Shown here: positions 54 through 19,286 of the stretch, one piece after another
Layout: each line of letters begins with the position of its first letter
How positions within the stretch are numbered: position 1 is the stretch's first letter
Assembly: GCA_041659785.1 (NCBI GenBank)
Contig: JBAZXO010000001.1
Span: 241,649-305,648, forward strand
Length of the DNA stretch: 64,000 nucleotides
Source: Minisyncoccota bacterium
GTDB taxonomy: Bacteria > Patescibacteriota > Minisyncoccia > Phycocordibacterales > UBA9973
Reading direction: 5' to 3'
Made by a program: the position numbers and the translations under genes
Notes under the pieces: model-generated
The model's input: the letters and a program-made list of their open reading frames with translations, nothing else
The model's database searches: none
Told to the model about the DNA's origin: nothing

Positions 54-1616
54 ATGAAAAAGGTAGTAATTTATTGTCGAGTTAGTTCTGTAAAACAAAG
101 TACTGATGGTCATGGACTTGATAGTCAAGAGCATCGTTGTAGAGAATATGCAAAGCAAAAAGGCTACAGCGAACCTGTAAAAGTTTTTAGAGATAGCTTT
201 TCAGGTGGTGGAGATTTTATGAATAGACCCGCGATGTCTGCTCTTTTGGCTTACTTAGATAAAGAACCAGCAACAAATTTTATAGTTATTTTTGATGACT
301 TAAAAAGATTTGCTCGTGATACTATATTTCATCTTAAATTAAGACAAGAGTTTGATGCCAGAGGAGCAAAAGTAGAATGTCCCAATTTTACTTTTGAAGA
401 TACTCCTGAGGGAAACTTTATAGAAACTATTTTAGCTTCACATAATGAATTAGAAAGAAAACAAAATCAAAGACAAGTTATTCAAAAACATAAAGCTCGT
501 CTTGAAAATGGTTATTGGTCTTTTACTTCACCTGCGGGATACAAAATGGGGAAAAATCCTATACATGGTTATCTTCTAAACAGAGTGGAGCCAGAAGCTA
601 GTATTGTGAAAGAAGCACTTGAAGGATTTGCTAATGGAAGATTTGAAAATCAAGTCGAGGTTCAGAGTTTCCTTCAACTAAAAAAGTTTCGTAATCTTAA
701 GAAGGTTAGTCTGGATTCAGTTAAAAGACTTCTTACTCGTGTTGTATATGCTGGGTATATAGAATATAAAGAATGGGGTGTAAGCAGAAGAATAGGACAC
801 CATGAACCTATAATTAGTTTAGAAACTTTTGAGAGGATTCAAGACAAATTAAATGGAAAGATAAAAATATTCTCAAGAAAAGATAACAATAAAGAGTTTC
901 CACTTAGAGGTTTTGTTTTGTGTGCTGAGTGCATAAAACCGATGACTGCGAGTTGGACTACTGGCAGAAATAGGAAACATCCTTATTATCATTGTAAAAC
1001 AAAGACATGTCAGATAAGAGGTAAAACAGTTAAAAGAAAGGAAATTGAGGAAAAATTTGAAGCTATCCTGCGTTCTATAAAACCCAAAGAAAAGACTTTG
1101 GCACTTACAAAAGAAATATTACTTGATGTGTGGAACAAGAGGCTTGCAAGCTTAGATAGCTTAAAAAGAAATCATGAAAATGCTTTAGACGAGGTTAGGG
1201 TAAAAATTAGAAACATGATTGATAGACTTTCAAAAACTGAAAATGAGAGTCTAATAAGGACTTACGAGAAAGAATTAGAAAAACTTAGTAATGAGGAACA
1301 AATACTAGAAAATCAGGCGGAAGTCATGAGAAGTAGAAAGCAAGACTTTGGAACCGCCCTAGATGTAACTTTCGATTTTATTAAAAACCCTTATCTTTAT
1401 TGGAAAAAATACGACCTAAAATCAAAACACCTAGTGTTGAAACTGGTGTTTGAAGACAGAATTATTTATGACAGACAAAATGGATTTGGAACCACTAAAC
1501 TAGCTTTACCCTTAAGGGTATTTGAGCTAAATCAGCTAAGTGATTCTATCGATGTGGACCGTACAGGACTCGAACCTGCCACCCCCTCATTGCAAATGAG
1601 GTGCTCTACCAGATGA
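54..1616 (+). CDS. Large serine recombinase (resolvase/invertase-type N-terminal catalytic domain, recombinase domain, zinc ribbon, coiled coil)
   Basis: N-terminal VIYCRVSSVKQSTDGHGLDSQ motif (catalytic Ser). 520 aa. Cys cluster CAEC...HCKTKTC. TATAAT-like box at 41-46. Confidence 0.85.
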   Translation: MKKVVIYCRVSSVKQSTDGHGLDSQEHRCREYAKQKGYSEPVKVFRDSFSGGGDFMNRPAMSALLAYLDKEPATNFIVIFDDLKRFARDTIFHLKLRQEFDARGAKVECPNFTFEDTPEGNFIETILASHNELERKQNQRQVIQKHKARLENGYWSFTSPAGYKMGKNPIHGYLLNRVEPEASIVKEALEGFANGRFENQVEVQSFLQLKKFRNLKKVSLDSVKRLLTRVVYAGYIEYKEWGVSRRIGHHEPIISLETFERIQDKLNGKIKIFSRKDNNKEFPLRGFVLCAECIKPMTASWTTGRNRKHPYYHCKTKTCQIRGKTVKRKEIEEKFEAILRSIKPKEKTLALTKEILLDVWNKRLASLDSLKRNHENALDEVRVKIRNMIDRLSKTENESLIRTYEKELEKLSNEEQILENQAEVMRSRKQDFGTALDVTFDFIKNPYLYWKKYDLKSKHLVLKLVFEDRIIYDRQNGFGTTKLALPLRVFELNQLSDSIDVDRTGLEPATPSLQMRCSTR

Positions 1617-1627
1617 GCTAACGGCCC
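1555..1627 (-). tRNA. tRNA-Ala(UGC)
   Basis: Reverse complement folds as a 73-nt cloverleaf: GGGCCGT acceptor with G3:U70, anticodon loop TTTGCAA, T-loop TTCGAGT. CCA not encoded. Confidence 0.85.
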
Positions 1628-1704: not shown

Positions 1705-1895
1705 AAACTAGTTAAAAGTTTTAAAGTTCATAAAGTATAAAGAAAATACATATTTATATTAGCTTTATAACTTTCTACTTTTCACTTTATAACTATTCGT
1801 TATTCTATCTTATTTTACCAATAATGCAAATTATATTGTTGTTTTTTCTAAAATTTCTGTTAGTATATAAGAAGTTCTTTATAAAAGAAGGAAAT

Positions 1896-2222
1896 TCTGG
1901 GGTAGCTCAGCGGTAGAGCGGTCGCCTGTAAGCGAAAGTGCTAGCAGCTTTCTATCGAAAGATAGATCGAAAATGAGGTGAATTCGGGGAAACCCAAACT
2001 TATAATGAGTGGGCAATCCCGAGCCAAGCTCTAATAAAAAATAGAGAAGGTGTAGAGACTATCTCGCAAGAGAGTAGTGTTCCAATTAATTTGGAATCCG
2101 AAGCGCCTCACTTCTAAATTCTTTGAACAATCAAAGAACACGAAGATGATATAGTCCGTACCATTAGTAATAATGGAGAAAACGTAAGCGATTGGTCGTA
2201 GGTTCGATCCCTACCCCCAGAG
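1896..2222 (+). tRNA. tRNA (most consistent with Asn, anticodon GUU) interrupted by a group I intron. Exons 1896..1929 and 2185..2222.
   Basis: 5' exon TCTGGGG-TA-GCTC-AGCGGTA-GAGC-G-GTCGC-CTGT. 3' exon TAA-GCGAT-TGGTC-GTAGG-TTCGATC-CCTAC-CCCCAGA-G. Acceptor and anticodon stems pair only when 255 nt are removed. Splice follows U35 and the intron ends in G. Confidence 0.7.
1930..2184 (+). ncRNA. Group I self-splicing intron (cyanobacterial tRNA-Leu-intron-like, IC3-type) in a tRNA anticodon loop
   Basis: Contains GGGGAAACCCAAAC...GGGCAATCCCGAGCCAAGC and AGAGAAGGTGTAGAGACT blocks that match conserved P3-P7 core sequences of tRNA group I introns. Terminal G; upstream U for a P1 G.U pair; GCAG internal guide pairs with exon CUGU. 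Confidence 0.75.
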
Positions 2223-2227
2223 CCCAA

Positions 2228-2258
2228 TAAAAAAGCCCCTTATGGGGCTTTTTTTTGT
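2228..2258. terminator. Rho-independent terminator (bidirectional)
   Basis: AAAAAGCCCCttatGGGGCTTTTTTTT hairpin between the tRNA (+) and a convergent minus-strand ORF. Confidence 0.7.
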
Positions 2259-5377: not shown

Positions 5378-5415
5378 AAAAAAAAAAGTTGCTAGGTAAG
5401 ACCTAGCAACTTTTT
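5378..5415. terminator. Bidirectional rho-independent terminator
   Basis: A10-GTTGCTAGGTaagACCTAGCAAC-T5. Confidence 0.65.
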
Positions 5416-8400
5416 ACGCAACAAAATTCTCATTAATAATTCCCTTCTTCGCATCTATTAAACCAGAAGTATAAACAGTAGTATATGATTCATCTGGATT
5501 CTTGCGGTCTATGGTAATGTGATATTCGCCTTTAGCAAGCAGACAATAATAATGACCATATTTATCAGCAACACGGTGGAAGATTTCTTGCGGGAAGCCT
5601 TTTCTAAAGACACGAATGACAGCATATGATAAAGGAGCTTTAGTTGCAGAATCGATAATAGTACCGAAGGTCTTAGGTTTGAAACCAAGTAAGTGGAGAG
5701 CCAAAAGAATACCATAGACGATAAGGATAGCTAAGTTAAGTTTGTCTGGTCGAGATATGAAAAGTCCAATGACAGAGATGAGTCCTATATAGAAGAGAGC
5801 ATTTAGAGCAGCGTTAATGATGCGTGTATTCTTAGAGTAAAACATCATAAGTTTCTTATCTCTCTTCGCAAATTCATTCCAGTCGAAAGCGAGAGGGTCC
5901 ATCGGAATGTTTTTAATGATAACTTCGTTTGTACCCAAAAGAACTTCCCCGCCAAAATATAAATTATCATAAAGTTCATCACTCATTTTACCAGCAAGTT
6001 TTGCTGAAGGAGCTCGATAGTTAGTCTTCTTTGTAGAAATTTGATATGAACCAGGAGGAACAAGGAAACCAAAACGTCCATCCAGGTCTGTAATCGCTGT
6101 TTGAACTTCTTTACCAGTATTATCATTTAAAACTACATAAACTGGATCAAGTGGTTGTTTGGTGACACTGTCGTATACAGTTCCCCATGGCGCGCGTTTC
6201 TTTCTTAGGCCAAGAGACACAAGTAGGACACTCCAGAGTCGTAATATCATAAATGGGATATCTGCAAAAGAAGCTGCTTCTCCACCTACAGAGGCAAGCG
6301 CAATAGCACTACCTCCCCCTGCTCCGAGGGCTGTGACTGTAGTCGTTGTGGCGTTACCTACCGGTGTATCAGAAAATTCAGTAATATTTTTTCTAGTTGT
6401 AGTGATAGCTTTTTTGATTTCGGGTGTAAGAATAGAATTTACTAAATTAGATATAATTGTTTGTCCTGAATCAATAGAAGAATTACCTTCACCAGAACTT
6501 GAGCCACCAACACCAGAACTTCCTGCTCCACCTCCAGTGCCAGCACCTCCGCTTGTTCCAGTTCCACTTCCGGCACCAGAGCCTGATCCACCGGTGCTAC
6601 CACCCGTACCTGATCCACCGCCTGCGCCAGAAGAACCACTTCCCCCCGTTCCTCCACTTGTTCCAGAGCCTCCAGTTCCTCCTCCTGTTCCAGAGCCTCC
6701 ACTAGTATCTTCTCCACTTGTACCACTTTCTACTGTTACAACAACGCTTCCACTTCCTGTTCTTCCAAGACCACCAGTACATGTAAGAGTATACGTATAA
6801 ATTCCAACAGGAAGAGGGTTTGTCGTATAAGTTCCTGAGCCTTCTGTTGATCCAGACCAGTTTCCAGATTTTATACAACCATTAGTTACATTTTGCGTTG
6901 AAAATGTAATGACTGATGTCCCATTGACTGGAATAGATGTTGGATTGGCAGTAACGGTGACAACTGGAGCAAGGGGTGTTTGAAAATCTGTAATATTTTT
7001 AGTTGTAAAGGATAAAATAGAACCTTCAACTTTTCCACTTGAATTCTTCGCAACAGCGCGGAAATAATATGTAGTGTTCTTTGTGAGACCAGAAATCGTA
7101 TCAGAAAAATCACTAACAGCAGATCCTTGGCTGTTATGCGTCGTTTCATTATTTAAAATAGTTTCAGATGTTCCCCACTCAAACCAGCGTGTCGTATCAG
7201 AAGTGCCATTAGGATCCACATTCCCATTGAGTGTTGCATCTGTATCTGTAATAGATGTTGCACTGTTCGTTATAACTTTTGGTGTTTGCAAAATTATTCC
7301 ACCTCCGCCCGTAGGAGAAGGCGCACCAACATTTGTATCATATGATACTGTTACAGAAGATAATGTGGGCGTAGCAGCTCCGCCAGAAGAGAGAAATGCT
7401 TTATATTGAAAATATCTATCATTATCGCTAATAGTAAGAGGATGATTTGAAACAAAGGCAATATCGTTGTTTGCATCAAGGAAATAATCAGTACCATCAC
7501 AGGCTAAAGCAGGCCCGCACCAATTTGACCAGGTGACATTGTCTGCCGAAGAACGTACTTGAAATTTTACAATTTCAGTGGAAGATGTTCCACTAGTTGC
7601 CCAGGCTAATTTTGTAACTTTGTTTGTTGCAGAACTAGAATCAAAGACCGATGAAGTGAGGTTTCCACTTGCACCATACTGCGAATAATTTATGGTGACA
7701 TCACTTAAGGCGGGAGTGACAGTAGTATCGGTAGTGGCAAGGTTAGCACGATATTGAATATAACGATTACCAGCAAGTGCGCCAATACTTCCTCCACTAA
7801 CTACATTTGTCGTCCAAGCTGTCCATGTACCATCCGGTATAGCTACATTGCCTGCTCGCACATCCACTGTAATACTGGTAAGTGCAGGTAATGTCGTTGT
7901 GTATGCAAGAGTTGTAAAATTTGCTTTTGCTCCTGTGTCTATTACCGCAGAAGTGAAGGTGCCGGAAGCTGCGTACGCAGTAGCAATATTAACTTTACTG
8001 ACAATATTGTCAAAACCACTTGAAACCCACATTGAGTCTGTAAAACTATCAAAAATAAGATTACCTGGACTAGTGCCAACAATATAAGTGTTCAAAACAG
8101 CACCGGTATTGATATCAATTTGACTAATTGTATTATCCACAACATTTGGTGTCCATATTGAACTATTCAAATCATCAAAAGCGGGATAATTGGGACCAAT
8201 GCCAACAGCATAAGTACCGACTATGGCTCCAGTACTAACATTAACTTTAATAACTGTATTATTATTTGCATCTGTGACCCACACAGAATTTGTAATACTA
8301 TCAAAAACTACGCCGCCAACACCAGATGTACCCACAGTGTACGTGCCCAGAACAGCACCAGTCGTAGCATTAAGTTTAATAAGATTATTACTAACAGTAC

Positions 8401-9262
8401 TACTTGTTACCCACACAGAGCCTGTAAAACTATCAAAAGTAATACCAATTGGACCATCAATTACATAATCATTTTTTGTACCCGTATTTATATCTACTTT
8501 GCTAACAGTGTTTGCGCCAAAACCCAAGTTTGCAACCCACACTGAGTTGGTCAAACTATCAAAAGTAATATCTTGCGGTCCTAAACCAACAGCGAAAGTG
8601 CCAACAATAGCACCAGTATTTACATTAATTTTACTAATATTGTCACTACCACTATTTGTCACCCATATGGAGTTAGTAACAGTATCAAATGAGAGACGTG
8701 AAGGTCCAATTCCAACAGTATAAGTACCAACAACAGCACCAGTCGTAGCATTAAGTTTAGTAACTGTGTTACTTCCATTGTTCGCCACCCAAATAGAATT
8801 AGTAACATTATCAAAAAGCACACCAAAAGGACTAGGGCCTACAGCATAATCAGTCTTGGCGCCAGCAGAAGAAGAAGCAGAAAGCCCTACGCTCGCTCCG
8901 ACACCTGAACCAGAAACTACTGTGCTGGAATTTGTGCCATTTGTAAATCCTCCTCCAGAAACTATAGGAGAAGCTGGAGTGATGCTTGTAGTGCCGTCGT
9001 CAGTAAATGCATAGCTAGTAGATGGCAGAGTAACAGTAGCAGATGCTGAAGTTCCTGTTTCTGTATTGTATTCTGTCCAGCCTGTTTGGTTGAGCGCATG
9101 CGTAGCAGTGTTTACTGTGGCTCCACCTAACCAAGATGACTGGAGAAAAGTCGCTGCAGCCGCTTGAGTGAGTTTACCGTAGAAAAAAAGACCGCTCATC
9201 CCTGCGAATATTATTGCAAAGGTTGCGAGAATAAATTGTATAGATGCGTGGCCTTTTTTCAT
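5414..9262 (-). CDS. Large surface protein. N-terminal signal/anchor, YVTN-type beta-propeller repeats, Gly/Ser/Thr-rich linker, C-terminal membrane segments interleaved with two CarboxypepD_reg-like domains.
   Basis: Repeats of the ~40-aa motif VGxxPxxIxFDxxTNSIWVxN. Low-complexity SGGSGTGGGTGGSG run. VYDSVTKQPLDPVYVVLNDNTGK...DGRFGF matches the carboxypeptidase-regulatory-like fold. Hydrophobic helices near the C-terminus. Confidence 0.75.
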   Translation of the reverse strand: MKKGHASIQFILATFAIIFAGMSGLFFYGKLTQAAAATFLQSSWLGGATVNTATHALNQTGWTEYNTETGTSASATVTLPSTSYAFTDDGTTSITPASPIVSGGGFTNGTNSSTVVSGSGVGASVGLSASSSAGAKTDYAVGPSPFGVLFDNVTNSIWVANNGSNTVTKLNATTGAVVGTYTVGIGPSRLSFDTVTNSIWVTNSGSDNISKINVNTGAIVGTFAVGLGPQDITFDSLTNSVWVANLGFGANTVSKVDINTGTKNDYVIDGPIGITFDSFTGSVWVTSSTVSNNLIKLNATTGAVLGTYTVGTSGVGGVVFDSITNSVWVTDANNNTVIKVNVSTGAIVGTYAVGIGPNYPAFDDLNSSIWTPNVVDNTISQIDINTGAVLNTYIVGTSPGNLIFDSFTDSMWVSSGFDNIVSKVNIATAYAASGTFTSAVIDTGAKANFTTLAYTTTLPALTSITVDVRAGNVAIPDGTWTAWTTNVVSGGSIGALAGNRYIQYRANLATTDTTVTPALSDVTINYSQYGASGNLTSSVFDSSSATNKVTKLAWATSGTSSTEIVKFQVRSSADNVTWSNWCGPALACDGTDYFLDANNDIAFVSNHPLTISDNDRYFQYKAFLSSGGAATPTLSSVTVSYDTNVGAPSPTGGGGIILQTPKVITNSATSITDTDATLNGNVDPNGTSDTTRWFEWGTSETILNNETTHNSQGSAVSDFSDTISGLTKNTTYYFRAVAKNSSGKVEGSILSFTTKNITDFQTPLAPVVTVTANPTSIPVNGTSVITFSTQNVTNGCIKSGNWSGSTEGSGTYTTNPLPVGIYTYTLTCTGGLGRTGSGSVVVTVESGTSGEDTSGGSGTGGGTGGSGTSGGTGGSGSSGAGGGSGTGGSTGGSGSGAGSGTGTSGGAGTGGGAGSSGVGGSSSGEGNSSIDSGQTIISNLVNSILTPEIKKAITTTRKNITEFSDTPVGNATTTTVTALGAGGGSAIALASVGGEAASFADIPFMILRLWSVLLVSLGLRKKRAPWGTVYDSVTKQPLDPVYVVLNDNTGKEVQTAITDLDGRFGFLVPPGSYQISTKKTNYRAPSAKLAGKMSDELYDNLYFGGEVLLGTNEVIIKNIPMDPLAFDWNEFAKRDKKLMMFYSKNTRIINAALNALFYIGLISVIGLFISRPDKLNLAILIVYGILLALHLLGFKPKTFGTIIDSATKAPLSYAVIRVFRKGFPQEIFHRVADKYGHYYCLLAKGEYHITIDRKNPDESYTTVYTSGLIDAKKGIINENFVA

Positions 9263-9367
9263 TATTTTTATTATATCATAGCAAAAAAATAAAATGCAAA
9301 TCCCCTCACCCCTTTCTTTCCCCTCTCCATAATTTTAATTATGGAGAGGGGTTGGGGAGAGGAGAAT

Positions 9368-12300
9368 CTATGGAGCAACTGGTGCAGGGTCAGGAGCAGG
9401 AGCAGGCGCTGGTGCAGGATCTGGTGTAGGCGCTGGGTCAGGGACGGGTACAGGATCTGGTGCAGGCGCTGGGTCAGGGACGGGTACAGGATCTGGTGCA
9501 GGCGCAGGATCTGTACAAACATTATTTACTAAAGTTTGTGGAGCTGTACAAGTTGGAACTACTGGTACTGGATCAGGTGTTGGAGCAGGAACAGGGTCGG
9601 GTACGGGGGCTGGAGCTGGTGAAGGATCTGGAGTAGGTGTTGGTGTAGGAGTTACACTAGCACCAGCATTAGAGATCAGAGCATCAAGTTGCGCTTTTGT
9701 AATACATGTCTTCCCTCCTACGTCATCGGTTACACACAAAGACTTCGTATTGACTTGTCCTGCAAAAATATCCCCTATCCCATTCGTAGCATCTGCTAAC
9801 CAAACAGTAACTTTTGCAAAAACATTTTTAAAGAATGCAGTAGCGAAAGATTCTGAAGGAGAACCTGGTAATGGGGTGACGGTACCTGCGACTCCTTCAA
9901 TATTTAGATTCATTTCTTGAATTGCTTTGACCGTGGTAGACAATATAGCATTCGTGTCTAATCCATAAGGCTTACCTTCTGCATCATGAGAGGCATATTC
10001 TGGAGAAATAGCAGCGACTTCTTCAGAGATGAATCCGAAATGGATTGCACTTCCCATATTCATCTCAGGCTTAAAGGTGTAAGAAACGGGACGAAGGTTC
10101 ATTAAGCTAGAGAGACCATTGTTTAAATCTGTTATGTCATTTTTAAATCTTTGAGAAGATATGGTACAGATTATATCTCCTGAAGCATTTGCAGATAGCG
10201 TTCCAGCTGTCGTACAACCTTTCTGCTGGACAACTCCTGTGTTCGTGACACTAAACTTAGACACTGATCCCACCTGTGCATCAATCAGAAGCTGAGCGCC
10301 TGAGCCGACAGCTGTTTCTGTTCGGTTTATGAGCAAGTCTGTGTTGGCGGCAGTGCTGGCGACTTGGTTATATGTTGGAATAATTGAAACAGCAGAACCT
10401 GCACCAGCTGTATTTGTAGAAGTGCTACGTCCTAGATTTATTGGAAATGTCCCATTTGTTCCACTACCCCCAACATAACGAATATCTCCATTGGTTAAGA
10501 CGTTATTTATATTCGCACCACCAACAATACTTGTGTAACCGTCTGAACCTCTTACACTAAACTTACTTACCCCTCCCACCTGCAAATCCATAAAAAGTGA
10601 AGCTCCATTGCTTGCTGTATTCGTTACATTTAATTTAATGGCAGTGGGTGTTCCTGTCGTATTCCAAGTTTGTGCAAGATTGAGAACAGACCCTGCGAGT
10701 GAGCCTGAGCCTGCGAGGGTGGTGTCAAGGATGTCGAGTTTAGAAGCAGGTGTCGTCGTTCCGATGCCGACGTTGCCAGCGAAATAATTAGTGCCACCTG
10801 CTGAATAAATAGCATAATTGCTTGTGCTACCCTTCGTTACATTACCTATATATAAACCGTAGTCATTGGTGACTGCACCAGTTCCAGTTATGTCATCAAG
10901 TTTGACACCATAAACATTTGTCAGTGTCCCCGCCCCAGTGATAGTTGGAAATGAATGAAACCCAACAAACCTATCGGTAACATTAGCACTACCATTAAAA
11001 ATATTTCTTGCTTGGTATGCAACAAAATGGTTTTCTGCCAAACCATTAGTAAGAGTCGCATGGGCATCGAAATCAGCGTAACCAAGATTAGTATCTGTTG
11101 TATTTAAAACTGACCAATCTTCGAATGCATGTCTGTCAATTGTTGTTCGAGTAGCATTTACAGAAAAATTACCATACGTGGTTGAACTACCAACAGAAAT
11201 GTCTCCACTTGAATTTATTCTAAGACGCTCGGTCGCATTTGTTCCGAAAACTAACGGGGTGGCACCAGTCGAATATATTTCTAAATCATTAGCTTGTGAT
11301 GAATTTTGAATAATTTGAACAGGAAACGTCAGCCCGCTAATACCAGCATCGGATTTATGTCTAATCACCAACGATTGATTGCTAGCAATACGCCCTGAAG
11401 CAAATGAACCACCGGTCGTCGTATTGTTCGCATTCCCACTTCCGTCAGAAACTATATCCAACTTAAATCCCGGGCTCGTCGTCCCGATGCCGACGTTGCC
11501 AGCAGTATCTATCGCCATTTTTGCACCTTCACTATCATCTATATGAAAATATAACGGTGCGTTAGTTGCACTATTAGAAGAATGAATATTTAGGTCATAT
11601 GGCGAATCAATGTTTTTTCTGATTTTAGCGTTTAACCCAGAACCTGAAGAAACTCCATTACCTCCTAGATAAAACGAGTTACTTCCAGCAGCAGAATAAG
11701 AAAAAATTTCACCAAGAACTTGCAATTTAGTTAGTGGTGCGGTGGTCCCTATTCCGACGTTGCCACTTTTTAAATATATAGCGGGGGAATCAACAGCACT
11801 ACCTCTTGTTCCTATAACTCCAATGGTTGGGGTAACTCCGTTATCAACATTTATTGACCCAACGTAAGTTGAATAATCGGGGTTATTATTAAATCCTATA
11901 TCTATTCTTCCTTGTGGAACAGTCGGAGATGTCCCTGTAGTACCAGTTATCCATAATTTTGAATTTGTGGGAATAGTAGTACTCCCTCCTGAATTTGAAC
12001 CAATACTTAACAAAGCCCCTGGCGCCGTCGTCCCGATGCCCACATTCCCCGTACTCCCTACTTGAAGTCCAGTATAAGCAATATTGTAAGCTTGGGAGGC
12101 GACAGTTTGAGAAGTTGAAACAGTGAGGCTTGTGGTTGAGCCAAATGCAGTAATTGTTCCTGCACTTGTTCCGTTTGCAAATACGAACTGTGAACCCACC
12201 ATTGCTGAAGTCCACACTGTACCCACGCCTGTGACAGTGGTGAGAGATTGTGATGCTGTACCTGTACTGTATTGGGTTGGGGTGACGGAGAGGATGCCAC

Positions 12301-15300
12301 TTGGTATGACCGTTCCAATCCCTACAGAACCCTTTAATGCAGTTGTAAGAATGCTATCATTTCCAAGAACAACACTATTGCTACCTATGCCTATTGCACT
12401 TGCTCCGATAACTATCTGATTCGTCTGTCCATCTGCATTTGCTTTTGAATCATTGCCTAAAAATAATGAACTTGAACCTATGGAATTTGAAGAGAAACCA
12501 TCAGCAATAAATCTTCCAGCATTGTAGCCTACCGCTGAATTATTAGAGCCTGTGGTGTTGGCCCTAAGAGCAAAGGTGCCTATAGCATTGTTATTAATAC
12601 CAGTTGTATTGAATCGGAGGGATTGATAGCCCATAGCATTATTACTACTACCAGAAGAGTTGGCAGCAAGAGATTCGGCCCCCAGAGCACTATTATTTCC
12701 TCCACTGCTTGCTGAAGCAAGAGCACTAGCACCAACAGCAGTATTATAGCTGGTACCGTTAGAATAAAGCGCTTGATAACCAATAGCTGTGTTGTTACCT
12801 CCGGCGACATTAGAGAATCCACTTTGATAACCTACGTAGGAATTATAATAATTCGCAGTTCCCGCTTGATAACCTAAAGAAGTTAAAAATGATGCATTAT
12901 CAAAATCAATTAATCCTGCCACTTGTAGAAGGTTGTTCGGTGTTATCGTACCGATACCAAGATTTCCATTAACCGTCAACTGTTGCCCTGTGAGTGATCC
13001 AGCTACACCAGAGAATTTACCATACAAAAGCGAGAATGCTTTATCGTTAGCTAAAGAAGATTGTTGTACATTGTTTATATAAAAAGCATTTGAACCTGTT
13101 TCGTATTTACCAGCTCCGTATCCTAATGCAACATTACCACTTCCAGTACTGTTAAGGAGAAGCGAATTGGCTCCGTTAGCTGTATTATTATTACCAGTAG
13201 TATTGTTACCCAAGGCACTTATACCATTAGCCACATTCTGGACTCCAGTGGTATTTAAAAAAAGAGTCTGATAACCAACAGCTACATTTGAATATCCGGT
13301 AGTATTAGAAAAAAAAGATTGAAAACCAATTGCAGTGTTATAACCTGCTATACTGGTACTTCCTACCGCAGAAGATAACCCTGTTTGGTAACCAATAAAA
13401 GTATTATTAATTGCACCTGCAACTATGTTCTTCCCAGCTTGATAACCAAGCTTGGTATCAAAATCTGTATTATTAAAATCAATTAAGTTTGCTACCTGGA
13501 TTAAATTGTTCGGCGTCGTCGTCCCTATCCCCACATTTCCGGTACTCCCCACCTGAAGTCCCGTATACCCAATATTGTAAGCTTGTGATGCGACAGTTTG
13601 AGAAGTTGAAACAGTGAGGCTTGTGGTTGAGCCAAATGCAGTGATTGTTCCTGCACTTGTTCCGTTTGCAAATACGAACTGCGAACCTATCATAGCGGAA
13701 GTGAATGTCGTACCTACACCAGTGATTGTAGTCAAAGATTGTGACGCTGTGCCTGTACTGTATTGGGTAGGGGTGACGGAGAGGATGCCAGCAGGAACAA
13801 GAGTTCCAATACCCAAGTTTCCATTTATTGTTAACTGTTGTCCTGTGAGAGATCCAGCTACACCAGAGAATTTACCGTAGAGGAGAGAATAATTTCGATC
13901 ATTAGCTAAAGAAGGTTGATATATATTGTTTACATAAAAAGTATTGGAACCGGTTTCGTTGTAGCCAGCTGCAAGTCCCAAGGCAACATTGCTATTCCCT
14001 GTGGAGTTATTGTTGAGGGCTTGCATTCCACTAGCGGTATTATAGGAGCCTGTGGTGTTGGATGTAAGAGCATACATTCCACTCGCGGTGTTTTGAGTAC
14101 CTGTGGAGTTATTGTAGAGGGCTTGCATTCCACTCGCAGTATTGTAGGAGCCTGTAGTGTTGGAGAAAAGAGCATACGTTCCACTAGCGGTGTTGAAATT
14201 GCCGTTGGTGTTGGAGTATAGGGCCTGCACTCCACTGGCAGTATTATAAGAGCCTCCAGTGTTAGAAAAAAAAGATTGATAACCAAATGCACTGTTAAAA
14301 TCTGCAGCACTAGTACTTAATGTTGCGCTAGATGTTCCTGCTTGATAACCAATAAAGGTATTATTTTGAGCATTAGCTACTATATTTTTTCCTGCTTGAT
14401 ATCCAAGCTTGGTATTAAAATCTGTATTATTAAAATCAATTAAGTTTGCTACCTGAATAGCGTTGTTGGGTGTTATTGTCCCTATCCCTACTCTGTGGTT
14501 CAGACTATCCACAAAAAGAGAGCTAGTATCTACGGTAAAATTATGAACTCCCAAATCTACATTGGATGTTCCGCCGGTGTAAGGAATATATCCTGAAAGA
14601 TCTAGCACTAAATTCCCGCTACCTAAAATAGAACCGCCATTGATAGTTTTGATATTTGTACCTGAAACTAGAGTGGCTTGTTTGTTATTAAAAGTATTCC
14701 AGTCAGTGGTTGTTAAATATCCATCTACCAATGTCGTAGCAGCGCCTAATTTTGTTTTAATAGTAGCTTGTGTTTCATCACCAGTGTTCGTGCCTGAAGA
14801 AGTACCTGAGAAAGTTCCTGATTGAGTAGCCAGAGTCCCAAGCACGGTAGTATCTAAAGCGAATGTACCAGCAGCAGTCATTTTTACAAAAGATGGTGAT
14901 ACATATGACAGGCCAGATACAGAAGTTAAATTTGCAGAAGAATCTTGTTTCCCATTAAAAGTATTCCAATCCGTATTTGAAAGTGCGCCTGTGGTAGAAG
15001 TGGAAGCTAAGGCTAAGGAGAGTACTTGTGTAGCAAGCGAAAGACCATTTGCTGTACCAAGTGTTACGGGATTATGGTTACTAGCTACTAAGGTTTCTAT
15101 CTGATTATATACAGCATTCTTAGACGGTGCATGAGTCGTGTCAGCATTCCAGCTCACGCCGTAAGCTACATCGCTAATACTCGTAGAAGTAAGTGGTGAA
15201 CGAACATCACAGTTTACATCTGTCGGTAAACATTCTGGGTTTAAAGTATCACCCGGATTATAGAAAGTGCCATTCCATACTGCGAAAACTGTTTTAGAAA

Positions 15301-15385
15301 AAAGAGAAATGACAATAATAGCCATAGCTAAAATAATCCTTTTTCTCATTGATGTATTTTTTATTTTTGAAAATATATTTTTCAT
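9368..15385 (-). CDS. Giant (2005 aa) secreted tail-fibre-like repeat protein with a C-terminal peptidase S74 / intramolecular chaperone auto-processing domain and a Pro/Asp/Ala-rich tail
   Basis: Signal peptide. Dozens of NTAxGxxALxxNTTG and GNVGIGTTTP repeats. SSQRFKNDI...LRPVSYTFK...HFGFISEEVAAISPE...LDTNAILSTTVKAIQE matches the endosialidase/tail-spike chaperone domain. C-terminal PTPTPDPSPAPAPVPDP repeats. Confidence 0.8.
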   Translation of the reverse strand: MKNIFSKIKNTSMRKRIILAMAIIVISLFSKTVFAVWNGTFYNPGDTLNPECLPTDVNCDVRSPLTSTSISDVAYGVSWNADTTHAPSKNAVYNQIETLVASNHNPVTLGTANGLSLATQVLSLALASTSTTGALSNTDWNTFNGKQDSSANLTSVSGLSYVSPSFVKMTAAGTFALDTTVLGTLATQSGTFSGTSSGTNTGDETQATIKTKLGAATTLVDGYLTTTDWNTFNNKQATLVSGTNIKTINGGSILGSGNLVLDLSGYIPYTGGTSNVDLGVHNFTVDTSSLFVDSLNHRVGIGTITPNNAIQVANLIDFNNTDFNTKLGYQAGKNIVANAQNNTFIGYQAGTSSATLSTSAADFNSAFGYQSFFSNTGGSYNTASGVQALYSNTNGNFNTASGTYALFSNTTGSYNTASGMQALYNNSTGTQNTASGMYALTSNTTGSYNTASGMQALNNNSTGNSNVALGLAAGYNETGSNTFYVNNIYQPSLANDRNYSLLYGKFSGVAGSLTGQQLTINGNLGIGTLVPAGILSVTPTQYSTGTASQSLTTITGVGTTFTSAMIGSQFVFANGTSAGTITAFGSTTSLTVSTSQTVASQAYNIGYTGLQVGSTGNVGIGTTTPNNLIQVANLIDFNNTDFDTKLGYQAGKNIVAGAINNTFIGYQTGLSSAVGSTSIAGYNTAIGFQSFFSNTTGYSNVAVGYQTLFLNTTGVQNVANGISALGNNTTGNNNTANGANSLLLNSTGSGNVALGYGAGKYETGSNAFYINNVQQSSLANDKAFSLLYGKFSGVAGSLTGQQLTVNGNLGIGTITPNNLLQVAGLIDFDNASFLTSLGYQAGTANYYNSYVGYQSGFSNVAGGNNTAIGYQALYSNGTSYNTAVGASALASASSGGNNSALGAESLAANSSGSSNNAMGYQSLRFNTTGINNNAIGTFALRANTTGSNNSAVGYNAGRFIADGFSSNSIGSSSLFLGNDSKANADGQTNQIVIGASAIGIGSNSVVLGNDSILTTALKGSVGIGTVIPSGILSVTPTQYSTGTASQSLTTVTGVGTVWTSAMVGSQFVFANGTSAGTITAFGSTTSLTVSTSQTVASQAYNIAYTGLQVGSTGNVGIGTTAPGALLSIGSNSGGSTTIPTNSKLWITGTTGTSPTVPQGRIDIGFNNNPDYSTYVGSINVDNGVTPTIGVIGTRGSAVDSPAIYLKSGNVGIGTTAPLTKLQVLGEIFSYSAAGSNSFYLGGNGVSSGSGLNAKIRKNIDSPYDLNIHSSNSATNAPLYFHIDDSEGAKMAIDTAGNVGIGTTSPGFKLDIVSDGSGNANNTTTGGSFASGRIASNQSLVIRHKSDAGISGLTFPVQIIQNSSQANDLEIYSTGATPLVFGTNATERLRINSSGDISVGSSTTYGNFSVNATRTTIDRHAFEDWSVLNTTDTNLGYADFDAHATLTNGLAENHFVAYQARNIFNGSANVTDRFVGFHSFPTITGAGTLTNVYGVKLDDITGTGAVTNDYGLYIGNVTKGSTSNYAIYSAGGTNYFAGNVGIGTTTPASKLDILDTTLAGSGSLAGSVLNLAQTWNTTGTPTAIKLNVTNTASNGASLFMDLQVGGVSKFSVRGSDGYTSIVGGANINNVLTNGDIRYVGGSGTNGTFPINLGRSTSTNTAGAGSAVSIIPTYNQVASTAANTDLLINRTETAVGSGAQLLIDAQVGSVSKFSVTNTGVVQQKGCTTAGTLSANASGDIICTISSQRFKNDITDLNNGLSSLMNLRPVSYTFKPEMNMGSAIHFGFISEEVAAISPEYASHDAEGKPYGLDTNAILSTTVKAIQEMNLNIEGVAGTVTPLPGSPSESFATAFFKNVFAKVTVWLADATNGIGDIFAGQVNTKSLCVTDDVGGKTCITKAQLDALISNAGASVTPTPTPTPDPSPAPAPVPDPVPAPTPDPVPVVPTCTAPQTLVNNVCTDPAPAPDPVPVPDPAPAPDPVPVPDPAPTPDPAPAPAPAPDPAPVAP
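9400..9520. repeat. ~30-bp tandem repeats encoding the Pro/Asp/Ala-rich C-terminal tail
   Basis: ggtgcaggcgctgggtcagggacgggtacaggatct is repeated head-to-tail. Confidence 0.7.
12021..12300. repeat. Intragenic ~280-bp direct repeat (second copy 13513..13792, ~90% identical)
   Basis: Long near-identical stretch, e.g. cagtttgagaagttgaaacagtgaggcttgtggttgagccaaatgcagt. The antisense ORFs 12123..12419 and 13614..13880 in the track translate almost identically. Confidence 0.8.
13990..14260. repeat. Tandem ~60-bp repeats encoding NTASG-type 20-aa repeats
   Basis: gcttgcattccactagcggtattataggagcctgtggtgttgga units recur four times. Confidence 0.7.
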
Positions 15386-15425
15386 AGTTTAAAAGTTCCA
15401 TACTCAGGAGAACTTTTATTACAAT

Positions 15426-15794
15426 TTACTTCTGAATTTTACTTATCAAAATACCCAAAAGTGTTTTCACGCTATTTTGCGCCTCTGCCTCAGTCTTGCT
15501 AGCGGTAAAATTCTGCCATTCTTTCATTATCTGTTCATCTTTCAAATCTCGAACTGCGTTTTCTAAAGAAAGCCTCGTCTCGAAATCAACTTCTGTATTT
15601 GCTTGTAATACTTTCTTGATAAACAAGGAAGTGAAGTTCAATACTTTATCATTTAATTCAAGCTTACTTTGAGTGGATTTTATTGTTTGTAATTCTTGGT
15701 TGGCAAAATAATAATTAAGCCCGAAAAAAGCGTTACCTATAACAAGTGCCCCAATGATTATAATAATTGAAATGCGATTTTTATTTTCTATCAT
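15426..15794 (-). CDS. Small membrane-anchored hypothetical protein
   Basis: 122 aa with an N-terminal TM helix. Confidence 0.5.
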   Translation of the reverse strand: MIENKNRISIIIIIGALVIGNAFFGLNYYFANQELQTIKSTQSKLELNDKVLNFTSLFIKKVLQANTEVDFETRLSLENAVRDLKDEQIMKEWQNFTASKTEAEAQNSVKTLLGILISKIQK

Positions 15795-15833
15795 ACTCGT
15801 TTAAAAATTCTTGATAATCTCTCTCTATATAAA

Positions 15834-17852
15834 TTATACCCGGTAGTAGAGCTTTTTGCAAAGTCTCACTACCGGGTTATACACTAATAATAATAAGACA
15901 ACAAACAAAAGAACCGTCTTCCAGTCAAGACTAGACAGGAAACTTCGACCAGATTTCATCTCGATATTTTGGTGTACACCACTACCTTCCTCCACTAAAA
16001 AAACTTTACCTTGATAAGTGTCATATCCAGGAGCTACTACTTCGAAATAATACGAACCCCCAGGGACCAAGAATGAATAAGTACCTCTGATGTCAGTAAC
16101 TTGTGGGTTTTCTTGTTGGTAATCTTTTGCGGGCCATAATTCATATTTTTTTGTAGAATTATTTAGATAATATAAAGAAACAATGGCTGAAGGGATACGT
16201 GTTTCCTTTCCATCTGTCTTTTCAAAGACATATCCTTCTGGGTCAACGACAGTTATCATTCTCATTTGGCGAGTACCAAGTACAGGGTCCACATAATTTA
16301 TAACAGTGATCACTTCATACTCACCTGGTACGACAGGAGTCGCCACATCCGCTGTGTATATGCCGTCACCATCAGGGTCCGTATATTCAAAAGAAGAAAG
16401 TACTAATTTATTTTCTACCACCTCACCCGGCCTTTGGCCACCCTCTCCTGTCAGGAGAGGGGCTGGGGGTGAGGTTTTTTCTACCAAATCATTCGTAGAA
16501 AATAGAGCTGAAGCGGTGAGCAAAGAACGAGAAATTATATTTTGAGTAATTTTAGGTGTAGCGGATTTAAAAACAAAATACCCAGTTACACTTTTTGCTT
16601 TACTTATTGGTTTTACCACCAGCTTGAGTGTCTGCCCAGGTAATGAAGATATCTGCTGAGTTACATCTCCTTTTTTCCCTACTGACAAAGCGACATTTAA
16701 ATCAACCAACTCTCCGGACGTTCTGGCGAAAACGAATTCAGATGGTAAATTTTTCTTTTCAGAAAGAGAAAACTTTGCTAAAGGTAAACCTTGAACGAGA
16801 GCAATCTTCCCTGTGCCCACACTTTTCTTCAATTGCCCATTTATATCAGAGAGACCAGGAATATTTAAGCCTACACCATTTAATTTATTTATGTCAGATA
16901 ACCTCTCTACTCCAGTGCCTTTGAGAGTATTAGTGAGCGCGGTGAGTCCGGGAAGGTTTAAGGTTACGCCATTTAATTTACTTATATCAGTCAATCTTTC
17001 TATGCCTACGCTCTTCAATGTATTAGCAAGTTCTGGAAATTTACTAGCAAGAACACGTACCTCATACGGCAATGGAGCAAAGACGAATTGATTAATAGCT
17101 TTTACGGGTAAGATATACCACTTTGTTTTAAATGAAGGTGGTGCAATTTTAGGAATTTCTATAGCTACTGCTTGTGGAAGTGTTTTTGGTCTAAAGAAAT
17201 TTAAAAAGAAATCCAAGGCAGAAACGGATGTAGATTTTATAGTTTTACCAATCTCATTTGTTACCGTCACAACTGGATTCTCGACTGGTGGAGTTACTGG
17301 TGTCGGCGTAGGTGTTGGATTGGATGTCCAGGGTGGATGTCCTCCGCCTCCTCCGCCGCCCCCACTAGTAGATCTAAGGCTTGCTTTTTTCCAATCTGTT
17401 TTTACTTTAAAGTTTGCCGCATTGCAAGAATCTATGGTTGTACAACTAAAATTAATTCTACTATTGTCAGACTTTACAGATGCATAACCTGAAAAGTATC
17501 CTTGCTCATCTATAGTAACTCCAGTAAAGTTAATCCAGCCAAGATTTGAGCTCCATGCATATCCAGAAAGCACTCCCTCTCCATTGTTTTTAACTCCCGA
17601 AGTAGATGGGTTTAATTTTATCCAACCAAATTGCCTGTTCCAAGCAAAGCCTGAAATATCAGTATCCGTAACACTTACGTTGCAGTTATTACAACCAAAG
17701 TTTAACCAGCCAATATTTTCTCCCCAAGCATATTTGTATGTTCCGTCAATCGTCCCATTCGTCTCCGAGGCAAAAGCATGAGGCACAAAAAAAATCATAG
17801 AAACTAAAATTCCCAAAAGAAATACCTTTCCTTTAATTAAATTAACTGCCAT
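15834..17852 (-). CDS. Secreted repeat protein. N-terminal GW-x-NF repeats, poly-Gly/Pro-Thr linker, leucine-rich-like ~40-aa tandem repeats, a CarboxypepD_reg-like domain and a C-terminal TM anchor.
   Basis: Signal peptide. GGGGGGGGHPPWTSNPTPTPTP. Two copies of VERLxDIxKLNGVxLNxPGL. IRGTYSFLVPGGSYYFEVVAPGY. Hydrophobic C-terminus. Confidence 0.7.
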   Translation of the reverse strand: MAVNLIKGKVFLLGILVSMIFFVPHAFASETNGTIDGTYKYAWGENIGWLNFGCNNCNVSVTDTDISGFAWNRQFGWIKLNPSTSGVKNNGEGVLSGYAWSSNLGWINFTGVTIDEQGYFSGYASVKSDNSRINFSCTTIDSCNAANFKVKTDWKKASLRSTSGGGGGGGGHPPWTSNPTPTPTPVTPPVENPVVTVTNEIGKTIKSTSVSALDFFLNFFRPKTLPQAVAIEIPKIAPPSFKTKWYILPVKAINQFVFAPLPYEVRVLASKFPELANTLKSVGIERLTDISKLNGVTLNLPGLTALTNTLKGTGVERLSDINKLNGVGLNIPGLSDINGQLKKSVGTGKIALVQGLPLAKFSLSEKKNLPSEFVFARTSGELVDLNVALSVGKKGDVTQQISSLPGQTLKLVVKPISKAKSVTGYFVFKSATPKITQNIISRSLLTASALFSTNDLVEKTSPPAPLLTGEGGQRPGEVVENKLVLSSFEYTDPDGDGIYTADVATPVVPGEYEVITVINYVDPVLGTRQMRMITVVDPEGYVFEKTDGKETRIPSAIVSLYYLNNSTKKYELWPAKDYQQENPQVTDIRGTYSFLVPGGSYYFEVVAPGYDTYQGKVFLVEEGSGVHQNIEMKSGRSFLSSLDWKTVLLFVVLLLLVYNPVVRLCKKLYYRV

Positions 17853-17888
17853 AAATTAGTACCCTTATATTATACCAACAGAGCAAAA

Positions 17889-19286
17889 TTACCTCAAGTA
17901 TCCTTTTAAAAATTCCTCTTTAAACTCAAAGAATTTATCATCTAAAATTGATTGTCTGATTTTTTTAACTAAATTTACAATAAAATATAAATTATGAATT
18001 GATGCCAGTGTCCCCGCGAGCATTTCTTTGCCATGGAAAAGGTGCGCGATATAGGCGCGAGAGTATCGTGGAGTACCAGAAGTTTCTTTGCGGGGTGTCT
18101 CGCAGGCTGACGAGCCGAGAGGCAGCGCTGTGTCAGCAGACACAGACAGCGACCCCGAAAAGAAATCTTCTGGCGCGGAGCAAACATAACATCCACAATC
18201 ATCTTCGATAGGACCAAGGTCATTTCTGAATTTTGCATTGGTAATTATTATTTTCCCCTTTTTAGTATAAATAGTTCCATTTCTCCCGAGCCGAGTCGGC
18301 AAAACGCAATCAAATAAATCCACACCATTTTCTATGCCCATAAATAAATCTTCTGGCTCACCGATGCCGAGCAAGTGCCTAGGTTTGTCTTCTGGAAGAA
18401 TTTCATTTACCCATTTTACAGCGGTAGACATATCTTCTTTCGCAAAGCTCCCCCCAATACCGAAACCATCGAAATATTTTCCTTCCACATTTATTTCCGA
18501 AATAATTTTCGCAGATTGTTTACGTAAAGATTCTTCTCGCCCACCCTGCACGATACCAAAAAGAGCCGGATCAGAAACAGAAGCGGACGAACGGTCGACG
18601 TTGCGAAGCAGGAGATCCTGAGAATGCTTCTGTTTCTGAGTTAATAATTTTTGATGCTCTCTTAAACTCCTCTCTGCCCAACGATGTGTACGCTCGAGCG
18701 CCTCGCCTTGATATTTCGAATCCTCTGTCGGAGAAGTACATTCATCAAAAGCAAAAATTATATCTGCGCCTAAGTTGTGTTGAATTTGAATTGATTTCTC
18801 GGGAGTGATGTAATGGATAGAGCCGTCCAAGTGAGATTTAAAAGATACACCATCTTGACCAATTTTCGCCAGGCGTGGCGCATCACTGTCGTCAAAACGT
18901 TCAGGGATCAAAAGTGATGGGTCAGTTATTTTCGTAATTTTTGAAATATCTTTCCCGTAGGCAGCACCAAGTGAAAAAACTTGAAACCCTCCACTATCCG
19001 TCATAGTGGGCGCAATACCGCCATCATTTCGCCGCCAATTCATAAAATTACCAATACCTCCTGCGTCACGTACTATCTCGTCGCCTGGCTGTAAATATAA
19101 ATGATAAGTATTACCGAGCACTACTTGCGTGCCAGCATCCCTCACCTGCTCGGGATTTAAAGATTTCACTGTAGCCTTAGTGCCCACAGCGACAAAAGCT
19201 GGAGTTAAAATATCTCCATGCGGAGTAGTTATAATTCCCACCCTTCCCAGACCATCTTTTAATTTTTTTTCTATTTTGAAAATCAC
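17889..19286 (-). CDS. tgt: Queuine tRNA-ribosyltransferase
   Basis: GRVGIITTPHGDILTPAFVAVGT, VVLGNTYHLYL, CGCYVCS zinc site, LPTRLGRNG. Confidence 0.85.
   Translation of the reverse strand: MIFKIEKKLKDGLGRVGIITTPHGDILTPAFVAVGTKATVKSLNPEQVRDAGTQVVLGNTYHLYLQPGDEIVRDAGGIGNFMNWRRNDGGIAPTMTDSGGFQVFSLGAAYGKDISKITKITDPSLLIPERFDDSDAPRLAKIGQDGVSFKSHLDGSIHYITPEKSIQIQHNLGADIIFAFDECTSPTEDSKYQGEALERTHRWAERSLREHQKLLTQKQKHSQDLLLRNVDRSSASVSDPALFGIVQGGREESLRKQSAKIISEINVEGKYFDGFGIGGSFAKEDMSTAVKWVNEILPEDKPRHLLGIGEPEDLFMGIENGVDLFDCVLPTRLGRNGTIYTKKGKIIITNAKFRNDLGPIEDDCGCYVCSAPEDFFSGSLSVSADTALPLGSSACETPRKETSGTPRYSRAYIAHLFHGKEMLAGTLASIHNLYFIVNLVKKIRQSILDDKFFEFKEEFLKGYLR

Follow-up and report, generated by a model that had tools for sequence, protein, structure and literature searches.

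In a 64-kb stretch of the chromosome of a Candidatus Paceibacterota bacterium (contig JBAZXO010000001.1; this whole stretch is referred to below as the window), four consecutive minus-strand genes spread over about 12 kb encode the proteins P3, S122, P2 and P1, in this order. We read this locus of the Candidate Phyla Radiation (CPR, or Patescibacteria), with moderate confidence, as a single transcription unit that builds a cell-surface fibre apparatus, cellular and non-phage in nature. Its parts are a giant fibre protein with a phage-type chaperone domain (P2), a conserved membrane protein (P3) with a small partner (S122), and a putative propeller protein (P1) ending in a widespread membrane module. 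The gene structures, homologies, folds and synteny, the intact S74 dyad of P2, the pairing of P3 with S122, the linkage of the P3 N-terminal domain with fibre genes, and the size and kinase linkage of the module family are shown by the analysis.

Gene organization and genomic context

The initial annotation of this DNA described an island of three genes for secreted proteins, and the three large open reading frames (ORFs) of 1282 (P1), 2005 (P2) and 672 (P3) amino acids were found exactly as it claimed. The gene count has to be raised to four, given that S122 (122 aa; 15426..15794, minus strand), located between P2 and P3, had been overlooked. P3 occupies 15834..17852 (ORF, AlphaFold2 [AF2] model and homologue alignments), P2 9368..15385 (Pfam and PHROGs matches) and P1 5414..9262 (ORF, NCBIfam and AF2), all on the minus strand. 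P1, P2 and P3 each start with a signal-like hydrophobic segment (judged by hydrophobicity and AxA-like sites only), in agreement with the proposal that they are secreted or membrane proteins of a Patescibacteria genome. The best sigma-70-like promoter match (TTGAGG-17-TATAAT with TG, 17869..17897, minus strand) is found just 5' of P3, and a strong intrinsic-terminator-like hairpin with a 15-bp stem and a T run (5383..5415, minus strand) lies directly 3' of the P1 stop codon. No equally strong signal of either kind appears between the promoter-like site at 17897-17869 and the terminator at 5415-5383, and co-transcription of P3, S122, P2 and P1 is plausible.

Housekeeping genes border the locus at both ends: tgt, mreC, mreB, an aminoacyl-tRNA synthetase (aaRS), S2 and EF-Ts at one, an Orn/DAP decarboxylase and DUF192 at the opposite one. 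The remainder of the window likewise consists of housekeeping genes. Synteny with mreBC/tgt is kept in the closest relatives, and P3 is 100% identical to P0121, a protein from a Ca. Paceibacterota metagenome-assembled genome. The GC content of the 6-14 kb region is higher (0.42 vs 0.37), which we attribute to its Gly/Ala/Ser/Thr-rich coding content and do not take as evidence of transfer.

P2, a tail-fibre-like protein with an S74 chaperone domain

The tail-fibre-like character first suggested for P2 is borne out by a Peptidase_S74 match (PF13884) of 41.9 bits, well above the Pfam cut-off of 22, and by PHROGs matches to tail fibre, tail spike and virion structural families. The protein consists of a signal peptide, tail-fibre-like repeats and the C-terminal S74 intramolecular-chaperone domain, and has no hydrophobic segment besides the signal. 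The S74 core (aa 1743-1797; 9995..10159, minus strand; Pfam) begins with Ser1743 and Lys1748 within the motif SSQRFK, and this Ser + Lys(+5) dyad is kept in most homologues whose aligned stretch spans the site. Trimerisation and self-cleavage at Ser1743 would be expected from the known mechanism of the family, the predicted fragment (aa 1743-2005; 9371..10159, minus strand) carrying a Pro/Thr/Asp-rich tail.

Among P2-like proteins it is the ends that are shared, ~150 aa at the N-terminus (with 44-76% identity) and ~300 aa at the C-terminus; the middle can be aligned in 0-18% of the homologues only. Homologue alignment delimits a conserved N-terminal region (aa 36-260; 14606..15280, minus strand), which we propose as the docking end, and the internal repeats and alignment coverage mark out the variable, internally repetitive shaft (10286..14605, minus strand). 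At the DNA level P2 contains a 12-nt periodic repeat at 9378-9658 encoding the Pro/Asp/Ala/Thr tail, a 300-nt duplication with 85% identity (12021-12320 and 13512-13811), and at least five tandem units of 51 nt (17 aa) at 13998-14303, which are possible substrates for length variation.

P2 resembles the S74 fibres and tailspikes of phages (K1F endosialidase and T5 pb1; the domain also occurs in eukaryotic MYRF) in the S74 domain with Ser + Lys(+5) at its start, in the long repetitive fibrous body, and in the combination of a conserved attachment end with a variable shaft. It differs from them in belonging to a conserved chromosomal operon without virion genes, in its Sec signal peptide and the ~200-aa Pro-rich extension after the S74 core, and in having membrane proteins as partners instead of baseplate proteins.

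P3, S122 and their association with fibres

P3 comprises a signal peptide, a W-rich beta N-domain, a linker, an Ig-like sandwich, a transthyretin-like (TTR) sandwich, a single C-terminal transmembrane (TM) helix and a basic tail. The N-domain (aa 29-162; 17367..17768, minus strand), built of 'G[YF]AWxxNxGWI[NK]F' repeats, is modelled by AF2 with a predicted local distance difference test (pLDDT) above 90. The TTR domain, of CarboxypepD_reg type (aa 540-635; 15948..16235, minus strand), is extracytoplasmic and membrane-adjacent, and was recognized by Pfam (below cut-off), AF2, Foldseek and HHalign. It is followed by the TM helix (aa 644-666; 15855..15923, minus strand; hydrophobicity and AF2), placed at aa 647-665 by the hydrophobicity scan, and by the tail RLCKKLYYRV. 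Mean pLDDT over the whole protein is 65, the confident parts being the N-domain (aa 33-160, >90), the two sandwiches (aa 484-536 and 540-632) and the terminal helix. The last sandwich (pLDDT 74-92) matches 5aq0_B in Foldseek with a target-normalised TM-score of 0.78, and its CarboxypepD_reg-type Pfam match (aa 584-632) reaches 22.0 bits, under the cut-off of 32.3. Contrary to the earlier description of P3 as leucine-rich-repeat (LRR)-like, no LRR family was found in Pfam at E ≤ 0.1, and the linker holds merely two 36-aa repeats, modelled as low-confidence helices.

The P3 family is large (659 matches, about 650 aa long, with 45-86% identity over >95% of the length) and extends over Nomurabacteria, Paceibacterota and beyond. 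The N-domain has no match in Pfam, NCBIfam or the PDB, and a word-indexed search with it alone returned short fragments only. PDB sequence searches with P2, its S74 region, P3 and the module profiles gave nothing useful. S122 is a bitopic membrane protein with an N-terminal TM helix and a conserved helical domain with the signature EVDFETRLxLENAVR.

A P3-based sample of relatives, 49 genome loci fetched by P3 plus two from contig look-ups, was scanned with hidden Markov models (HMMs) of the window proteins. S122 lies directly 3' of P3 in 29 of the 31 loci with room for it, both exceptions being the most divergent loci, and is thus a near-obligate partner of P3. Of 23 loci where the sequence extends far enough, 11 have a P2-like gene that follows P3–S122 and begins within 2.5 kb; the giant fibres of these 11 share the N-terminus of P2 and the S74 domain and vary in the middle. 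The order P3–S122–fibre is kept across many Patescibacteria lineages. In addition, the P3 N-domain is fused to the C-terminal module of P1 (described below) in P0003 and in loci L031, L033, L046, L051 and L055; it is a mobile domain.

An independent sample of 80 metagenome loci, picked by the P1 module alone, points in the same direction. The P3 N-domain is carried by 47 of the 80 sampled modules, typically in proteins of 600-650 aa, and an S74/P2_N fibre gene adjoins 25 of 48 loci with the N-domain vs 2 of 32 without it (Fisher p = 1.2e-5, odds ratio 16). The HMM scan found S122 in none of these 80 loci. Because fibre adjacency follows the N-domain, and S122 is absent from the module-selected loci, the recurrent partnership is that of a P3-type N-domain with a fibre, the membrane part being supplied either by P3's own C-terminus together with S122 or by the double-hairpin module.

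P1 and its C-terminal module

P1 is composed of a signal peptide, a putative seven-bladed YVTN-type propeller, beta-sandwich domains, a Gly/Ser/Thr linker and a C-terminal module. In keeping with the propeller named in the initial annotation, about seven repeats of ~42 aa are visible (aa ~140-425; 7988..8845, minus strand), with partial NCBIfam matches (PQQ_ABC_repeats and YncE, and TIGR02276 at 17.9 bits against a cut-off of 27.85). The module (aa 942-1282; 5417..6439, minus strand) was delimited by AF2, HHalign and profile searches. In an AF2 model of the last 360 aa, built with family alignments (model numbering + 922 = P1 numbering), it runs as helices 967-993 and 999-1016, TTR domain d1 (1027-1123), helices 1144-1170 and 1174-1191, and TTR domain d2 (1200-1281), with a mean pLDDT of 84, and 86-98 (mostly above 90) in d1 and d2. 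Besides the signal, the hydrophobicity scan picks out helices at about aa 1001-1019, 1151-1169 and 1175-1193. The two halves, each of two helices plus d1 or d2, align with each other, helices included (HHalign 99.1%, E 4.5e-19); therefore the module is an internal tandem duplication of a [helical hairpin + TTR] unit.

The sandwiches of P1 were matched by Foldseek to transthyretin, the TTR domain of carboxypeptidase D (5aq0_B, TM-score 0.64), CnaB/SdrD-B and NOMO. The d1 and d2 domains of P1 and the last domain of P3 are accordingly fold matches to the known CarboxypepD_reg or transthyretin-like (prealbumin-like) domains (5aq0, NOMO, SdrD B/CnaB stalks), with weak but consistent Pfam support. 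They differ from these in scoring under the Pfam gathering thresholds (for P1, 28.4 bits at aa 1027-1087 against 32.2), although homologues of the P1 module do pass, P0319 for one with 48.7 bits. P1 differs further in the placement of its TTR domains, which are interspersed with membrane hairpins and bordered by K/R clusters; they may be cytoplasmic, which would be unusual for the fold.

The module is very widespread. A word-indexed search retrieved 272 relatives with 42-70% identity over ≥84% of the query, and an exhaustive profile search 6,233 cluster representatives. Of these, 2,249 reach E ≤ 1e-30, so that the family has at least 2,249 clusters as defined at 50% identity; P1 represents its own. 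It almost always occupies the extreme C-terminus of proteins of 500 to >3000 aa with very different ectodomains, and d1 is very strongly conserved across the family, with the invariant core PWGTVYDSVTKQPLDP. No Pfam or NCBIfam model names it, and no further copy of any of these modules exists elsewhere in the window. Short stand-alone module proteins (325-363 aa), which would have pointed to a form facing the cytoplasm, were considered as well, and the two that were checked turned out to be truncated gene calls: P0084 and P0019 are "short" database members at L054 7698-8001 and L055 7497-8001; a scaffold gap of Ns precedes the call in L054, and in L055 an in-frame P3-type N-domain and a Pro-rich linker upstream were omitted by the gene caller.

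At the same slot of the syntenic loci L016 and L014, P1 is missing, and the P2-like gene is followed by the decarboxylase or tgt. P1 is therefore a genome-specific variable cargo that combines a predicted propeller ectodomain with a widespread C-terminal membrane module.

Topology of the P1 module and a possible link to signalling

Across the module family, K/R residues are scarce in the hairpin loops (0.03 and 0.28 per sequence) and frequent in the TTR-side flanks (3.7, 4.5 and 3.7, about 12 in total). Under the positive-inside rule, this would place the TTR domains of the P1 module in the cytoplasm. The same conclusion is supported by P0319 (943 aa, L136 962-3793), which joins a signal peptide, a P3-type N-domain, Cys-rich repeats, the module, and HisKA and HATPase_c domains in one ORF, with no hydrophobic segment after d2, given that the kinase core must be cytoplasmic. 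P0319, found on a 4-kb groundwater contig, is either a natural fusion or an assembly artefact. A cytoplasmic location requires that the first module helix does not span the membrane; this helix is weakly hydrophobic (median Kyte–Doolittle value 1.68) and has an AF2 pLDDT of 51-62. On balance we regard the cytoplasmic location as fairly probable.

Members of the subfamily to which the P0319 kinase belongs (E 1e-47 to 1e-62) are encoded right behind 11 of 66 module genes, their starts lying -46 to +194 nt downstream; 18 of the 80 module-selected loci hold such a kinase. They include both 2TM-PAS-HisKA-HATPase proteins (about 400-466 aa) and soluble 236-aa HisKA-HATPase proteins without a sensor domain. 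A stand-alone receiver of 121-122 aa was found 3' of the kinase in all four cases checked and, judged by size, in two further loci. In other genomes the module most often carries a P3-type N-domain, and genes for a histidine kinase and a CheY-like regulator frequently come next. A recurrent operon of other Patescibacteria, seen at L110 4164-12761 and also in L131, L093, L084, L080 and L067, contains in order a large unknown protein, a ~720-aa TPR membrane protein, the module protein, a 2TM-PAS histidine kinase and a 122-aa stand-alone receiver. TPR proteins are also encoded 3' of the giant fibre gene in L003 and L055.

These data raise the tentative alternative that the P1 module is a transmembrane signalling module, in which the ectodomain (the putative propeller in P1, a P3-type N-domain beside a fibre elsewhere) would sense contact or a ligand and the two cytoplasmic TTR domains would pass the signal to a partner of the sensor-less histidine kinase type. 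The single-ORF fusion in P0319, the kinase genes next to module genes with a receiver following, the existence of soluble kinases without a sensor domain of their own, the charge pattern and the very strong conservation of d1 all speak for it. On the other side, no kinase is encoded in the 64-kb window, so that a two-component partner is absent here, 83% of the sampled module genes have no adjacent one, and the fusion comes from a single metagenome contig. Furthermore, hairpin 1 is homologous to hairpin 2, and by simple parity four helices would leave the TTR domains on the side of the secreted ectodomain, where the TTR fold usually resides and where the homologous domain of P3 certainly does.

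Accessory membrane sensors of intramembrane-sensing or sensor-less histidine kinases are known from the BceAB-BceS and LiaF-LiaS systems. The related loci are similar in that the gene of a membrane protein with a large ectodomain lies directly upstream of the kinase gene (and is once fused to it), and in that the kinases have only two TM helices and a PAS domain, or no sensor domain. They differ in that the module proteins show no sequence relationship to those sensors and the regulator consists of a lone receiver with no DNA-binding domain; the window itself differs in having no kinase. A more elaborate version would make the whole a contact-sensing system, in which the exported, self-processing fibre would bind a target and a W-rich N-domain on the double module would signal to the cytoplasmic TTR domains, and from there to a sensor-less or intramembrane kinase and a CheY-like regulator. 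The window would then hold a kinase-less version with the module halves split between P3 and P1. We consider this combined scenario rather unlikely.

The C-termini of P1 and P3

The initial annotation treated P1, P2 and P3 as independent adhesins and assigned to P1 and P3 one dedicated C-terminal anchoring or sorting module of carboxypeptidase-regulatory-like sandwiches interleaved with hydrophobic helices, belonging to an unknown sorting system. Part of the description is correct. Both proteins end in TTR-type sandwiches and TM helices, structure prediction (AF2/Foldseek) confirms the fold on both sides, and the TTR domains are homologous, d1 of P1 aligning with the last domain of P3 (HHalign 94%, E 1.2e-7, 91 columns). 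The C-terminus of P1, with its interleaved helices, is indeed a recurrent, unnamed and anchoring-like membrane module that acts as a portable C-terminal tag on very diverse ectodomains. It is also true that no named sorting system applies, as no NCBIfam or Pfam sorting-signal model matches, and neither LPXTG nor PEP motifs are found in the C-termini of P1 and P3.

What does not hold is the commonality of the module. Nothing beyond this one domain of ~90 residues can be aligned, the P3 C-terminal HMM touches P1 over about 30 residues only, and the membrane arrangements differ, P3 having a single TM helix between its TTR domain and the basic tail and P1 four helices in the order hairpin–TTR–hairpin–TTR. 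P1 and P3 therefore share one domain superfamily and not one (sorting) module. The TTR domain of P3 must be extracellular, whereas those of P1 are K/R-flanked and continue into a cytoplasmic kinase in one homologue, and the two probably lie on opposite sides of the membrane. Nor are the proteins independent, P3, S122 and P2 forming a conserved unit in which P3, a conserved orthologue tied to one partner gene, does not act as an adhesin on its own, and P1 being the cargo that syntenic relatives lack. The full-length conservation of P3 and that of the P1 module also speak against plain fast-evolving adhesins; the variable part is the middle of P2 only. We consequently find the earlier reading as a whole improbable. 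The idea that S122 plus the P3 C-terminus equals the P1 module was also examined and dropped for lack of sequence support, because S122 is unrelated to P3 and to the module in all their parts.

Compared with established sorting and anchor signals (LPXTG-sortase, PEP-CTERM/exosortase, GlyGly-CTERM and the C-terminal domain of the type IX secretion system, T9SS), the P1 module is alike in being a portable C-terminal element on thousands of exported proteins, and P3 in ending with a TM helix and a basic tail. Both differ in matching no sorting motif or model, and the P1 module also in its linkage to kinases and its far bigger size (~340 aa with two folded domains and four helices).

Cell-shape and phage alternatives

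P3–S122 might instead be a cell-envelope or cell-shape factor linked to MreBC, its association with fibres being incidental. P3 does sit immediately behind mreB-mreC(-tgt), both in the window and in four related loci (L004, L014, L016 and L018), and both P3 and S122 are highly conserved. However, these four close relatives are, apart from the window, the only ones of 34 related loci with mreBC adjacency, whereas a neighbouring fibre gene is met again and again across distant lineages, with varying gene orders and fusions, which makes this explanation very unlikely.

A prophage or tailocin remnant, with P2 as its tail fibre, is suggested by the S74 domain and PHROGs matches, by a serine recombinase and tRNA genes 4-5 kb away, and by matches to tail fibre genes of uncultured phages, which are only short motif matches of the P2 N-terminus, but we reject it as extremely unlikely: the neighbours (tgt, mreBC, aaRS, DUF192, decarboxylase) include no other phage structural genes and are syntenic in relatives, P2 starts with a Sec-type signal peptide, many Patescibacteria lineages share the P3–S122–fibre order, and no relatives of P3 or the module occur among 2.9 M viral contigs (IMG/VR), so that P2 does not qualify as a virion component. 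A defence system was discarded as there was no PADLOC match.

A model of the proposed fibre apparatus

In the cellular fibre apparatus that we favour, P2 would be exported by its Sec signal peptide and would fold outside the cell into a tail-fibre-like trimer, nucleated by its own S74 chaperone (useful where ATP is absent), which would then cut itself off at Ser1743 by means of the Ser/Lys dyad. The conserved N-terminal ~150-260 aa would be the cell-proximal docking end, and the repeat-rich variable shaft would contact the target cell or surface. P3, as a type I membrane protein paired with S122, would provide its W-rich N-domain as a membrane-tethered dock for fibres, holding the N-terminus of P2 with the assistance of S122. 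P1 would display its propeller on the alternative membrane module. The docking of P2 on P3 and the adhesion to a host are what we infer from this arrangement.

Several points weigh against this model. Half of the more distant P3–S122 loci have no detectable P2-like neighbour, and the association of the P3 N-domain with P2 is one of gene neighbourhood only. The N-domain fold was unmatched in structure searches of the PDB and BFVD, and the middle of P3 is poorly modelled (pLDDT below 50). The extension of ~200 aa past the S74 core is unusual; therefore, the processing of P2 may differ from that of phage fibres. Finally, the putative promoter and terminator are consensus matches, and the predicted signal peptides of P1, P2 and P3 derive from hydrophobicity and AxA-like sites.

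Other features of the window

Close to the left end of the window, a large serine recombinase gene (54-1616, plus strand) overlaps with its 3' end a tRNA-Ala(TGC) gene (1554-1627, minus strand). A 20-nt piece of this tRNA gene, cagatgagctaacggcccgt (1610-1629), is repeated at 1686-1705 and resembles an att-type duplication from integration. Next to it, a group I intron (Rfam Intron_gpI 1930-2177, 75.9 bits) splits the anticodon loop of a tRNA gene at 1893-2245 (plus strand). Excising 1930-2184 (5' exon end U1929, intron end G2184) yields a clean tRNA-Asn(GTT) in ARAGORN, which had missed the intact, intron-bearing gene; a hairpin with a T-run follows at ~2230-2256. Far from the fibre locus, two adjoining genes (41456-43249 and 43337-45220, minus strand) encode proteins of ~600 aa, each with a C-terminal PG_binding_1 peptidoglycan-binding domain and no further Pfam match at E ≤ 1e-5, which are additional candidate envelope or host-wall proteins.

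Significance

The CPR accounts for much of the diversity of bacteria, and its members are mostly thought to live attached to other cells. To our knowledge, almost nothing is known about attachment or host sensing outside Saccharibacteria. Full-text literature searches gave no description of these families or of the gene cluster in CPR, and a Minisyncoccus paper mentions generic adhesion domains only. The individual parts, i.e., S74 fibres, TTR sandwiches and two-component systems, are known; the novelty lies in their combination in a cell, in the P3–S122–fibre unit and in the double [hairpin+TTR] module.

The locus points to a phage-type, self-chaperoning fibre that cells have put to a conserved use, to a fixed pair of membrane partner proteins, and to a family of C-terminal membrane modules, very large (thousands of clusters) and unnamed, by which diverse surface domains are joined to the membrane and, in some genomes, to a two-component system. 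Once named and tested, these families would provide concrete candidates for how Paceibacteria and Nomurabacteria attach to and sense a host, and a better annotation for thousands of proteins now labelled "carboxypeptidase regulatory-like domain-containing".

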